From a virus (taxonomy: Duplodnaviria > Caudoviricetes), in the IMG/VR virus record IMGVR_UViG_3300031555_004271, positions 1 to 64,000 of that record: 64,000 nt of DNA. The stretch is one strand, 5' to 3'. How positions within the stretch are numbered: the first letter of the stretch is position 1; every line of letters begins with the position of its first letter. Both the position numbers and the translations under genes were made by a program. The notes under the pieces were generated by a model that saw only the letters and a program-made list of their open reading frames with translations, was not told the DNA's origin and searched no databases. Below are positions 14,553 to 49,505 of the stretch, piece after piece.

Positions 14553-16297
14553 ATGCCGAGAGTATTAACTGATCAAGAAAAGAAATACCTTCTATCATTA
14601 AAAAAAGAGGATATGTCACTTGATTTACTAAAGGACTTATTTGCAGTTTCTCAGAAGAATCCTAAAGCTAAGTTTGAACCAAATGATAAAGTTCAGTTTA
14701 AAACTAAAGAGTATTATAATGCTAAACTAGTTACTACTACAGTTGGTAGGTTCATTGTAAATAAATGCTTATTAGAACCAAAGATTATCGAACTAATTGG
14801 TTATCAAGATATAATTATTGATAAAAAGTCTATGAAGGGTCTAGATCAGAAAATCATAGATGAGTGTTTATTAACTGAAAAGATTACAATGACTGATTAC
14901 CATGACTATCTAGACCAATGTAACTGGTTAGCATATGGTTGTACTTACTTTATTGTACCTTCTTTGGATACTAGTATGTTTATAGTAGATAAAGAAATTT
15001 TAGATATGAAACAAAGACTAATTGAGGAAAATAAAGAAGCTGTACAAAATAACGATGTTAGTACAATTTTCAATATAGAACAAGAGCTATTAAAAGCTTC
15101 TAAAGAAAAAGTAAAGGATATTCCTGGATACCAAATCTACGCATCTGGTGCTAGAGGTAGTTTTGATAACAACTACAAGAACAGCTGCCTCATGAGAGGT
15201 TCTGTTATGAACTTCACTGATCCATCTAAATTTGAAGCATCTATGGCATCCTTAGTAGATGGAATTCCCAAAGAAGATTTCCATATTTATGCCAACATTT
15301 TAACTGCAGGTACTTATGCAAGAGCTAAACTATTACACTTGGTTCTTAAATTCTTTAATTGCTGGGAGAGTAACTTACTTAATCAGCAGCTTATATAAAA
15401 TCGTAAAAAAAGAGAGCCTAGTTGCAGCTAAACTCTCTTTCTCATTTAGAAATTATCGAATGTAATTCAATACACTATGTACTTTACTATTAGTATTTTT
15501 ATAGTGGATTGCATTCAATAATTCTTCCTTCTCCTTTTCGTTAATGTTTAGGTTGGAAACTGTTACCATTAGCTTAAAAGCATCAGAATTATCTTGTCGA
15601 ATTTTCATATCTTATATCAACTCCATTCTGTGAATAAGCAAGATTTGTATCACGATAAAACACTTATCCTTATCCCATCAGAATTATAATATATAGATAT
15701 AAAAAATTTCTTTACGGTTTTATATAAGTTCAACGACTAAATAGAATCTGAATAGATTCTAAATAAGAATTACTAGAATTTTCTAGTAAAGATATAGTCT
15801 TATCTTTAGTGTAATCTAAAGTTTTATAGCATAGGACTAATAACCCTATGCAAAAATGTATGAAGAATACTGAAGTTGGTGGTTATCTAGTAAAACAGAG
15901 TCGTTCAGGCTATCAACATCTAATGTTAGACGAAAAAGATTCTGATTGTGGAACTAAAAAGTTCCTTGAGATACTACTAACTGATAAAAATAAAGGCTTA
16001 TTCCTATTAAGATGGATACAGGATTCTGATGGAAAGTTAGTTCTATTAGATGCTGATAATGTAAAATCCTATATTGGAAAGAAAATTAGAATTAGATCTC
16101 CTCTATATTGTACCAATGATAGAATCTGTAGTAAATGTGCAGGTGAGTTGTATTATAAACTTGAAATGCCAAATATTGGCTTAATTGGTGACCGTATAGC
16201 CAGTACTATCATGCAGAAGTCTATGAAACAATTCCACGACAGTACTATCAAGACAACTGTCATCGACTATGAATCTCACTTAGAGAGAATCGGTTAA
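14553..16297 (+). CDS. rpoC: RNA polymerase beta-prime C-terminal-part subunit (probably virion RNAP), spliced: join(14553..15326,15863..16297), 402 aa
   Basis: Splicing restores bridge helix TYARA|KNTEVGGYLVKQ, followed by SDCGT, RSPLYC..ICSKCAG and KQFH; the track splits it into two ORFs. Confidence 0.85.
15405..15440 (-). terminator. Terminator of the intron-embedded antisense gene
   Basis: minus RNA AGAGAGUUUAG-CUGCAA-CUAGGCUCUCU-U6; G.U pairs form only on the minus strand. Confidence 0.75.
15453..15608 (-). CDS. 51-aa ORF inside the intron P6 loop, antisense to the intron
   Basis: MKIRQDNSDAFKLMVTVSNLNINEKEKEELLNAIHYKNTNSKVHSVLNYIR; ggagttga RBS of the same form as the amidase gene; own promoter and terminator. 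Confidence 0.65.
   Translation of the reverse strand: MKIRQDNSDAFKLMVTVSNLNINEKEKEELLNAIHYKNTNSKVHSVLNYIR
15686..15700 (-). promoter_or_regulatory. Putative early promoter inside the intron
   Basis: minus atatctatatattat. Confidence 0.55.
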
Positions 16298-20810: not shown

Positions 20811-22423
20811 ATGAAAACCGAATTTGTAAATCTAGAAAGTTTGTATGATCCAGAGAGAGTTATTACAAATCCACAACCACTAACAAAGGAAAAGACTTTC
20901 TCCGATGATGGTCTTTTCTCAGAGAAACTATTTGGTAAGAACAACAGTGACAATGACCTACTATCATATTCTTGTGAATGCGGTAAATACAAAGGAAAGT
21001 TCTTAAGAGGTTTTACTTGTGACGAATGTAAAACTGAAGTAAAGTTCCAAGAACCTATGTTAGAGAAGCTAGCATGGATTTCTCTAGGTAAGTATCACAT
21101 TATCAATCCCGTATTCTATTATGAAATTGCTAAACTAACATCTGGTGTTCAGAAGTTAAATGACATCATTTCTTATGATAAGAAAATTGACAAAGATGGT
21201 AACATTATTGATGATGAAAAAGGAAAGTTCAATAATTCTGGTCTAGTATTTTTCAAGGAGAATTTCTTTGAGGGCGAGAAGATTCTAGACTATCTATATG
21301 AGAATTCTAAATATAAGAACAAAGATACTGTGTATAATCTGTTACTAGAACATCAGGATAAGATCTTCCTACAACATATTCCAGTATACGACACTCTATT
21401 GAGACCTGCAAGTGTGACTTATAAGGACAAACCTGTGTTTAAGTTTGATGAGATCAATAACTCCTATAACTTCATCATCAAACTATCTAACATGATTAAC
21501 AAAGAATCTAAGGATTTTGATTTAGTTGTACTACCTAACTTGTTCAACATTCAGAATAAGATGATTCTAGTATTTAATAAGATTATCGAAAATCTTGCAG
21601 GTAAGAGTGGCTTTATCAGATCCTCAGTGCTCGGTTCTAGACTTAACTATAGCAGTCGTTGTGTTATTACACCTATGGAAGCTGGTTATGATGTAACCGA
21701 AATCGTATTCCCTTATCTAGCATTTGTTGAACTGTATTCCTTCCAGTTAATCAATATGTTAAGTAAGCTAAAGAAGATTTCTATGTTAGATGCACAAAGA
21801 ATTGTATATGAAGCACAGGCTAATTTCAATAGAGAGGTTTACAATCTATGTCTAGAATTGGTTAAGAAAACCAAACATGGATTGTTAGTAATAGGTATTA
21901 GAAACCCGACAATTGCAAGAGGATCTGTACAGGTACTTCGAATTGCTCATGTAAAGGAAGACATTTCAGATTTAACAACGTCAGTTCATAACTGTATCTT
22001 AGAGTTATGGGGTGGGGATTGAAATTTCGTAGTCGTCTGTGTTAGTAATAATACAGAGTATCATTTCAAGAATTGCTGGAAAACCTTAAAAGATGATCAG
22101 CATCCAGTTATATACTGGTTCAACGACTAATACCTTAAGAATTTAGGGTTAGTATGAAACATTCTTTATAGAATGAAGATATAGTCTGAACTCTATAGTT
22201 ATATAGAGTTTGTAAGTCTAATAAACTTACTTCAACATGTAAATAGTACGATGGTGACGTTGTTAACTTCTTCCCACTAATGGATAATGAATACAAGACT
22301 GAGTTCTACAGAGTTTTCAGTCCTGATAAGATGTTCATTAGTAACAATACTGGTGCATTTAATGCTAAACTTTCTATTGACCGTGATCAAGTTATTGGTA
22401 TTCATCAGTTTAATCTAGACTAA
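20811..22423 (+). CDS. rpoC: Non-virion RNA polymerase beta-prime N-terminal subunit (AR9 gp270-like), spliced: join(20811..22019,22247..22423), 461 aa
   Basis: FSDDGLFSEKLFG, CECG..CDEC zinc site, RLNYSSRCVITP, RNPT; splicing gives catalytic GGD|YDGDVVNF. Confidence 0.9.
22020..22246 (+). ncRNA. Group I intron (227 nt) inside the catalytic DxDGD motif
   Basis: IGS ucgua-Guc pairs the 3' exon uacga (P10) and 5' exon gaU (P1); P aauugcugga 22071, R guucaacgacua 22118, P8 cauucuuuauagaaug, S 22176, terminal G 22246. Confidence 0.9.
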
Positions 22424-46116: not shown

Positions 46117-46596
46117 ATGAGTTTCATAGACAAACTAGCCATTTTTATATCTAGAACTGCCAAAGTAGCCAATATAGTTTCAAAAGGACTTTCCATCTCA
46201 GATGAAGTTATAAAAGAATTCAGTAAAAGTGGTACTGATCCTAGATTATCCAGACCTGTTAGAGAAATAATGGAAGTATTAGATACATACAATATCCGTT
46301 ATGAAACTGAAAAGAAGTTTGATGATTGTAGAAACATCCGTTGTTTACCATTTGATTTTTGCATTTATACTAACAACAGATTTTTCTTAATAGAGTATGA
46401 TGGATTGCAACACTATGAACCTTGTTTTGGATTAAATGAAGAACAGAAATTAGAGAACTTTAATCGTACTAAATACAATGATAGTATAAAAGAACAGTAT
46501 TGTCGGGATCATAACATTACACTTCATAGAATTAGGTATGATGAAGATCATGTAACAAAAATTACAGCTATTCTAAGAAGACATAGAATGATATAG
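46117..46596 (+). CDS. Vsr/DUF559-like PD-(D/E)xK endonuclease
   Basis: EKKFDDC...LPFDF, IEYDGLQHY, D..K..YC..HNI.L.RI.Y. Confidence 0.8.
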   Translation: MSFIDKLAIFISRTAKVANIVSKGLSISDEVIKEFSKSGTDPRLSRPVREIMEVLDTYNIRYETEKKFDDCRNIRCLPFDFCIYTNNRFFLIEYDGLQHYEPCFGLNEEQKLENFNRTKYNDSIKEQYCRDHNITLHRIRYDEDHVTKITAILRRHRMI

Positions 46597-47748: not shown

Positions 47749-49484
47749 TTAATCTCTAGTTAGAGTGTATAATGTCTGAATACCCTCATTACGAAGAACT
47801 CTAGTAGTTTTACCTGTAACGTCTAGTAGGTATTTAGATGAGTTAATCAACTTTTCACATTCAGCATTTGCTTCTTGTGAGTAGACAGATCTTAGTGAAA
47901 CCGTGTCACCGTCAAACAATAATCTTATGCTTTAGAATTGTTAATTCTAAAATGCTTTGTATTTCAATACAAAGATGAGACTATATCTTTATATTCTCAT
48001 TTTCACTATACTTATAGTGTAAATTAGTCGTTGAACTAGTATAATTCTAGCTGCTGATTATCCTTTAGGATTTTCCAGCAATTAAAGAACTTTATAGCGA
48101 ACTTTTATGGTTAATCCGCTCCCAATGCTTCCAACATGGTATTATGAGGTATAATGGTGTCAATATAGTTGATATTTTCATCTATAACAGGACTATCCTC
48201 ACTCCTAGTAATTACAGGATACTCATCATAGTATTTATTGGCAATCTCAATCTGTTGAGTCTTATAAGTAGTCATTATCTTGATTCTACTAGGGTAAATA
48301 CTTTGATAGTTTTCAATAGGAAATCGAGTAACATATACATGTTTATCTTTACATACTCTAGTAGCGACAATATAGATAAGATCTAGTAGAGTAAACTGTC
48401 TTTTAAGCTCGTCTTGGAATAGATTTAATGGAGTATCTTTTACACTACCATCATCCATCTTAACAGGAACTAAAATAGGGTCTAGTCTGTTATCAGGAGA
48501 TTTGATGTAAAGATTCAACATTCCCTTGATCTTCTCAGTTGTAAACTTGGACATTGGATTCACCAGTGTATAGTACTTTCCATTAGCAGCTTTAAGTTCA
48601 CGTACTGAAGCAAAAGTTTCTCTAGCAAAATTATCAATCTCATATTGGAAGAAAGGATAGAAAAGGTTACATAAATGGGATAAAGGAATACCAGTATATG
48701 TAAACTTTACTAACTGATCTGCAGGTTTATTGGAATTAACACGACCTGCTGAGATAACACCTCTAGTACTATAGTCCACTGTCTTGCCGAGCAGACTATT
48801 CTTGAGAAGTCCACTCTTACCCTTAATATAGCTAGTCAAGTATTCATAAATCTCAACTAATTGTTTCTGTAATCTACTTTCAGTAATATGACCCATAAAA
48901 TCAAAGTCACTATTAGAACTAGCTAGGGAAATTAGATTAGCATACATTTTGTTAATCTCATCTTCAGAAACTTTACCATGGTCTAATTTCTGTATATTAG
49001 AATCTCGGTAGGATGCAGGAATTACCAACCAGTACTTGACAAAGATCTCATCAATATCTAACTTGTTAAGTAAGTCTATAGTTCTATCACGTTCACCAGA
49101 TCCAGATTTTTTGAACTTTAGTTTCTTAAAGTTGTCATACAACCAATTAATACCAGTATTACCATTTACATTGTCGGCAACTAACTCGCCTTTCTCATTA
49201 ATTGAGAAATAACCACTACCATCAATGACTCTGACAAAGTTTCTATTCATCTTAGTAAGTCTCTGGTATAATAAAGGATGTAGAAAATGTCCTTTTAAAT
49301 CTATATATCCGAATAAGGTTCTTCTATCATAACTACCAACTTGACCAAAGATTCTATAAGAAAGTAGACCGTCATCAGTAGGATACCATCCTTGATCGAA
49401 TCTAATTGGATTAGTAACTTCCTGTAAATTGTTTACTTTTATGAATTTTTCTAGGTTACAAATATCTATCTTCAAAGGAAACAT
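47749..49484 (-). CDS. rpoC: Virion RNA polymerase beta-prime N-terminal subunit, spliced: join(48114..49484,47749..47916), 512 aa
   Basis: DDGLLSYRIFG, KGKSGLLK..LLGKTVDYSTRGVIS, VTRFP; splicing gives LGAD|FDGDTVS. Confidence 0.9.
47917..48113 (-). ncRNA. Group I intron (197 nt) inside the catalytic DxDGD motif, no P8 evident
   Basis: P1 gcggaU/Guucgc, P 48075-83, Q 48051-59, R 48025-36, S 47978-89, terminal G 47917. Confidence 0.9.
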
Positions 49485-49505
49485 CCTCCTTTCATTATTT
49501 TTCTA

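Follow-up and report, generated by a model that had tools for sequence, protein, structure and literature searches.

Can a group I intron that seems to lack helix P8 interrupt the active site of a virion RNA polymerase and still be a working ribozyme? The question arose from an initial annotation of the 64,000-nucleotide stretch of DNA analysed here (the window; positions 1 to 64,000 of the IMG/VR record IMGVR_UViG_3300031555_004271), in which a 197-nt intron without P8 was proposed at 47917-48113. The complete record is an 85.8-kb fragment, representing about one-third of the genome (33% complete, estimated) of an AR9-like jumbo phage, and the whole of it contains five Rfam matches to group I introns. 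The intron occupies 48113..47917 of the minus strand, on which all of its features described below also lie, and splits the motif GAD|FDGD of the N-terminal subunit of the virion RNA polymerase beta' chain. Exon 1 (48114..49502, minus strand; ORF 48111..49502) ends in ...LEALGAD and is orthologous to AR9 g145, which is annotated as the virion RNAP beta' subunit, and exon 2 (47749..47916, minus strand) begins with FDGDTVSLR and runs to the stop codon. No Pfam family was found for exon 1; the identity of the gene is based on tblastn, in which exon 2 matched the beta' N-terminal subunits of AR9 (g145), PBS1 and BpSp.

The exact borders of the intron could be fixed from genes that do not carry it. 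The beta' gene of BpSp is contiguous across the splice point and reads ...LGGDYDGDTVSLR. Five loci in our scan (L265-L269) proved to be relatives of exon 1, and one of them, L265, is intron-less and encodes a protein that is 90% identical, its GAT codon running directly into TTT GAT GGT GAC. Because L265 reads through the predicted ligation point, the intron is bounded exactly by 48113 and 47917 and is 197 nt long. It contains no ORF; its first three bases form an in-frame TAA stop codon, and its last base is the G at 47917. The last codon of exon 1 is GAU, so that a U.G pair is placed at the 5′ splice site. At L266, a different, nuclease-bearing intron is inserted 8 nt downstream of this site, and the AR9 intron, which carries a Hef-like endonuclease, is inserted 6 nt downstream of it. 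Because these differing introns lie only a few nucleotides apart, the codons of the DxDGD loop are a hot spot for independent insertions. Loci that bear on this hot spot also include L267 from position 2157 onward, L227:600-2500 and window positions 21988-22252, where the DxDGD motif of the second polymerase of the phage is likewise split by an intron.

What, then, is the anatomy of this RNA? P1 (48096..48120) is a helix of 7 bp, with the U.G pair at the splice site, formed between the last 7 nt of exon 1 (48120-48114) and the internal guide sequence (48102-48096); it was assigned by reading the sequence and was recovered in the minimum-free-energy (MFE) fold. P2 is absent between P1 and P3. 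The 6-nt 5′ strand of P3 (48085..48090), identified by covariation, directly precedes J3/4 and P4. The Rfam alignment, our covariance model and the MFE fold all place P4 (48081-48075 paired with 48057-51) around P5 (48071-67 paired with 48064-60), the two together spanning 48051..48081, and the first two of these sources place the P6 hairpin at 48036..48050. J6/7 and the 5′ strand of P7 (48025..48033), which make up the conserved guanosine-site element, are invariant in all 11 aligned introns. A single peripheral hairpin (48004..48019), which in the alignments corresponds to P7.2 of td-like introns, and a 5-nt joiner then lead to the 6-nt 3′ strand of P3 (47993..47998), again identified by covariation. 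At the position of P8 there is only the linker AUA (47990..47992), seen both by reading the sequence and in the alignment, and it is followed by J8/7 (47989-84) and the 3′ strand of P7 (47983-79), an 11-mer (47979..47989) that is invariant in all aligned introns. The P9 hairpin (47955..47974), which has a 4-nt loop, is supported by the Rfam alignment and the MFE fold, and the P9.1 hairpin (47932..47950) by the MFE fold and by two fully compensatory pair changes relative to an orthologous intron; a short tail and the terminal G complete the molecule.

The intron thus has a P3/P7 pseudoknot around P4-P6, conserved J6/7, P7 and J8/7 elements, a terminal G and an exact, in-frame junction, as is characteristic of group I, and the hairpin 48019-48004 is the extra hairpin (P7.1/P7.2) between the P7 5′ strand and the P3 3′ strand that characterizes subgroup IA2. 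Its G+C content is 28%. The MFE z-score of −5.4 and the 112 bits scored by its core against the covariance model built in this analysis place the structure beyond chance. In the MFE fold, the P3 3′ strand, the linker, J8/7 and the P7 3′ strand (47979-47998, minus strand) can also form a local hairpin that would compete with P3 and P7 and that is not conserved in other P8-less introns.

Two lines of evidence bear directly on the absence of P8. First, the Rfam model RF00028 aligns with the intron end to end (46.2 bits, E 2e-10), and the P8 segment of the model receives 0 nt. The score lies below the gathering score of 50, so that no match was obtained in the window at the gathering threshold and the intron was recovered only in E-value mode; this shortfall matches the deleted P8 and P2 segments. 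Second, we aligned three paralogous introns of the same phage, namely the sister intron at 15327 (15327-15862), that at 21988 (21988-22252) and one near 82 kb of the record. In all three, P7, one hairpin and the P3 3′ strand are followed by a P8 hairpin of 14-18 nt, and an alignment of the 3′ halves shows a clean gap of 17-23 columns at P8 in our intron and its orthologue. Together, the empty P8 segment and the paralogue gap confirm what the initial annotation had claimed. Its coordinates also hold, both for the linker (47992-47990, the only 3 nt between the P3 3′ strand and J8/7) and for the hairpin, which it had placed within 48021-48001 and which lies exactly at 48019-48004. The order P7, hairpin, P3 3′ strand, 3 nt and J8/7, and the comparison with the sister intron on which it was founded, likewise stand; the label P7.1 does not, as the hairpin aligns with P7.2 of td-like introns.

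Could the same sequence be a conventional core in another register? The hairpin 48019-48004 would then be P8, preceded by P7 and a short P3 3′ strand. A single hairpin between P7 and J8/7 is indeed found in many phage introns, where it is P8 (e.g., those of the Madawaska and Jug types described below), but there the hairpin abuts J8/7, whereas 14 nt intervene here. Moreover, P3 would be reduced to about four A-U pairs and J3/4 would be extended to 9 nt. To decide on the register, we built a covariance model from 10 P8-less introns and aligned 11 introns to it. Across the 11 introns, the 6-nt strand next to J3/4 covaries with the one next to the linker: pairing in P3 reaches 97%, both partners have changed in five of the six pairs, and none of 500 shuffles reached the observed values. 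P4 is 100% paired, and the strands of P7 are invariant and complementary. When the 3′ partners were slid by 1-3 columns, whole-structure pairing fell from 88% to 32-48%, and in a plain MAFFT alignment, not fitted to the model, P3 was still 83% paired and five of six pairs covaried. Those paralogues that have both hairpins align the hairpin of our intron with their first one, and td-like members place their second hairpin where the displaced P3 strand would have to sit. The P3 covariation and this second hairpin rule out the fold with the hairpin as P8, which was the alternative mentioned in the initial annotation and which we regard as very improbable; the covariance alignment supports P3 as 48090-85 paired with 47998-93.

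A P8 hairpin might also have been lost through a deletion during sequencing or assembly, as assemblies can lose hairpins. However, the intron recurs, again without P8 and at the identical site, in three loci from three different metagenomes (L267, L268 and L269). These orthologues are identical to one another and differ from our intron at about one position in eight, and in place of the 3-nt linker they have 4 nt of a different sequence. Because such a layout is, in addition, common to at least 13 distinct introns (see below), the chance of an artefact is negligible. The initial annotation had held that reads restoring P8 would overturn its claim; the objection is answered without reads, since three independent contigs are P8-less and the intron-less allele fixes the junction. 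We also scanned metagenome contigs with the string formed by the P3 3′ strand, linker and J8/7, with room for as many as 30 nt in case P8 had been retained, and obtained one chance match without an intron core; that scan yielded no orthologue with P8 at precisely this site.

The differences between the two orthologues are informative about selection. The two wobble pairs of P3 in our intron are Watson-Crick pairs in the orthologue; a wobble pair replaces one pair in the P7.x hairpin and one in P9 there, and two pairs of P9.1 are altered on both sides and remain paired. P5 is weak in the orthologue. The linker, by comparison, varies in both length and sequence, as is expected of a mere connector. 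This pattern of substitution indicates that the structure of the intron is under selection. It also bears on the suggestion that the intron no longer splices and is decaying, in a phage that is defective or a copy of the gene that is dead. The record is indeed a metagenome fragment, of which only the estimated one-third is present; however, neither exon is damaged or out of frame, the helices survive the changes relative to the orthologue, the record of L268 is 319.6 kb long and complete according to CheckV, and no second copy of the beta' subunit was seen. Decay is thus an unlikely explanation. We consider it highly probable that selection has kept here a genuine group I intron of the IA2 type, whose P8 has shrunk to a 3-nt linker and which has no P2.

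Is this intron alone in lacking P8? We scanned IMG/VR for sequences in which P7 and J8/7 lie close together, carried out a second scan aimed at this layout, and located the strands of P3 with a script. At least 13 distinct introns have only 3-6 nt between the P3 3′ strand and J8/7. They interrupt essential genes, splitting the Walker A codons of the terminase (L071 and L180), the portal gene (L198 and L271) and another site of the beta' gene (L044), and the complete 319.6-kb genome G002 (CheckV 100%) contains four of them. The layout is found in phages of very different G+C content, L071 and L180 being richer in G+C than our intron. The linkers are of two kinds, A-rich and 3-4 nt long, as in our intron, or bounded by C...G and 4-6 nt long; those of the second kind may be a vestige of P8 consisting of one pair. 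Introns at L096/L104 and L040 also look P8-less, their P3 5′ strands not having been located, and the intron at L187, P8-less according to the script, was dropped because reading revealed a normal P8. From these comparisons, the loss of P8 in our intron is real and unusual but not unique, and the intron is one of a recurrent class of P8-less phage introns.

On the contig of L265, in which the active-site intron is absent, the P8-less intron L044:3838-3954 lies upstream in the beta' gene, after ...LLG, and is followed on its 3′ side by an apparent 24-nt mini-exon and then by a second intron with an ORF. At L076:2170-2551 (G002 185761-186142), two P8-less introns are arranged in tandem, separated by an exon of less than 100 nt, and the pair is closely preceded by a third intron, whose P8 is normal.

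How might an intron of this kind be spliced? All of the active-site elements are intact: P1 with its U.G pair, J3/4, P4-P6, J6/7, P7, J8/7, the P3/P7 pseudoknot and the terminal G. Because the active-site junctions are all conserved, a guanosine-initiated reaction is the natural reading, and the intron would be excised by the ordinary two-step pathway, so that GAD is joined to FDGD and the beta' subunit regains its Mg-binding loop. The usual place of P8 is in a stack below P3, from which it leads the chain back to J8/7. A linker of 3-6 nt could make the same return, so that the loss of P8 would remove stabilizing stacking and a docking surface but no catalytic group, and its cost would likely be one of stability and not of chemistry. 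We infer that the intron splices in vivo, and the naturally minimized ribozyme proposed in the initial annotation is the interpretation that fits it best. An IA2 core is not known from biochemistry to work without P8.

It is conceivable, though in our judgement rather improbable, that the intron is removed in vivo only with the aid of a protein that holds the P3-P7 pseudoknot of the P8-less RNA; an RNA chaperone, a phage factor or a ribosome stalled at the in-frame TAA would be candidates. Folding of the T4 td intron is assisted by the ribosome, and the in-frame stop codon at the start of our intron fits such a role. The low G+C content (28%), the 6-bp P3 with two wobble pairs, the loss of both P2 and P8, and the competing local hairpin in the MFE fold would all be in keeping with a need for help. 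In Bastillevirinae phages, moreover, splicing of four out of eight spliced genes was seen in infected cells but not in vitro (PMC11878797). On the other hand, there is no candidate maturase: the intron has no ORF, and the neighbouring ORF 46117-46593 gave only a sub-threshold match to DUF5889. That the P8-less layout occurs in phages of such different G+C content, and presumably of different hosts, also argues against a specific partner. The neighbouring ORF (plus strand, 159 aa) is free-standing and lies 1.3 kb from the intron on the opposite strand; its C-terminal half resembles, by eye, an endonuclease of the Vsr/PD-(D/E)XK type, and it may be a free-standing homing endonuclease.

To return to self-sufficient splicing, the P8-less IA2 introns could form a distinct and widespread subclass of fully autonomous ribozymes, in which P8 is dispensable for both splicing steps and which, at about 155-200 nt, would be among the smallest natural self-splicing RNAs; we hold this broader proposal tentatively, at slightly less than an even chance. 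To our knowledge, no group I consensus is drawn without P8, which is counted in the catalytic P3-P9 domain. In one review (PMC3984707), P8 is assigned to the catalytic domain and P2 is the only helix said to be missing at times. We found no description of P8 loss in phage group I introns in the literature, in which "P8" itself is not searchable as a term. These introns are relevant both to ribozyme structure and to the engineering of minimal introns. A single phage lineage offers a series of paralogues with P8, orthologues without it and intron-less alleles, and this series is a ready-made test of the role of P8 in folding and catalysis. Compact self-splicing introns without ORFs are also wanted as scaffolds for RNA circularization and trans-splicing tools. 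Furthermore, because P8-less introns score below the Rfam threshold, annotation can easily mistake the split active-site genes of jumbo phages for fragments.

How does the intron compare with those already known? Subgroup IA2 is represented in phages by the introns of T4 td and Twort, among others. Among phage IA2 introns, those of the phiNIT1 ribonucleotide reductase gene, 201phi2-1 gp273/274 and AR9 g145 have J6/7-P7 and J8/7-P7′ strings that are near-identical to those of our intron. As in our intron, the segment from P7 to the 3′ strand of P3 contains at least one peripheral hairpin and then a GAAA-like joiner, the loop of P9 has 4 nt, and the insertion site lies in conserved codons of an essential gene. 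A BLAST search of the locus against named phages returned only matches to the core strings, in Staphylococcus and Acinetobacter phages. In contrast to our intron, the five named-phage introns that we read (from phiNIT1, phiAGATE, 201phi2-1, a Vibrio phage and an Acinetobacter phage) have a tetraloop-capped P8 of 5 bp immediately downstream of the P3 3′ strand, and P8 is likewise kept by every named td-like relative of the P8-less intron L071. The AR9 intron has a P8 hairpin as well; ours has 3 nt in its place, a single P7.x hairpin and no P2. In vitro, the intron of the phiNIT1 ribonucleotide reductase gene splices itself (PMC11878797). A further comparison is provided by the same-phage paralogues, which have the same core strings and the same position of P3, the P3 of the sister intron being identical to that of the orthologue of our intron; P8 (14-18 nt) is present in all three, P6 contains an antisense gene in two of them, and P2 occurs in one.

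Similarly small introns have been shortened in other ways. In the "Jug" jumbo gut phages, ORF-less group I introns of about 200-206 nt fragment essential genes, and metatranscriptome reads support splicing for 37 of 76 (Sci Adv 2026, PMC12880540); that study contains no secondary-structure analysis and does not mention P8. When we read the introns on Jug contigs, we found a short P8 to be kept and the P7.x hairpin to be absent, the opposite of our intron. In the Staphylococcus jumbo phage Madawaska (W03), the covariance model identified 12 miniature intron cores of 95-114 nt (e.g., 225359-225453 and 237810-237904). The Madawaska intron that we read closely has likewise kept P8 and lost the P7.x hairpin, so that it and our intron represent opposite ways of shrinking the same core. 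Finally, degenerate miniature group I introns in the nuclear rDNA of Phialophora and lichen fungi, reportedly described by Harris and Rogers in 2008, are said to be without much of the core, P8 included. Most of the helices are gone from those introns and their status as ribozymes is disputed, whereas in the phage intron described here only P8 and P2 are gone and all of the catalytic junctions are kept.
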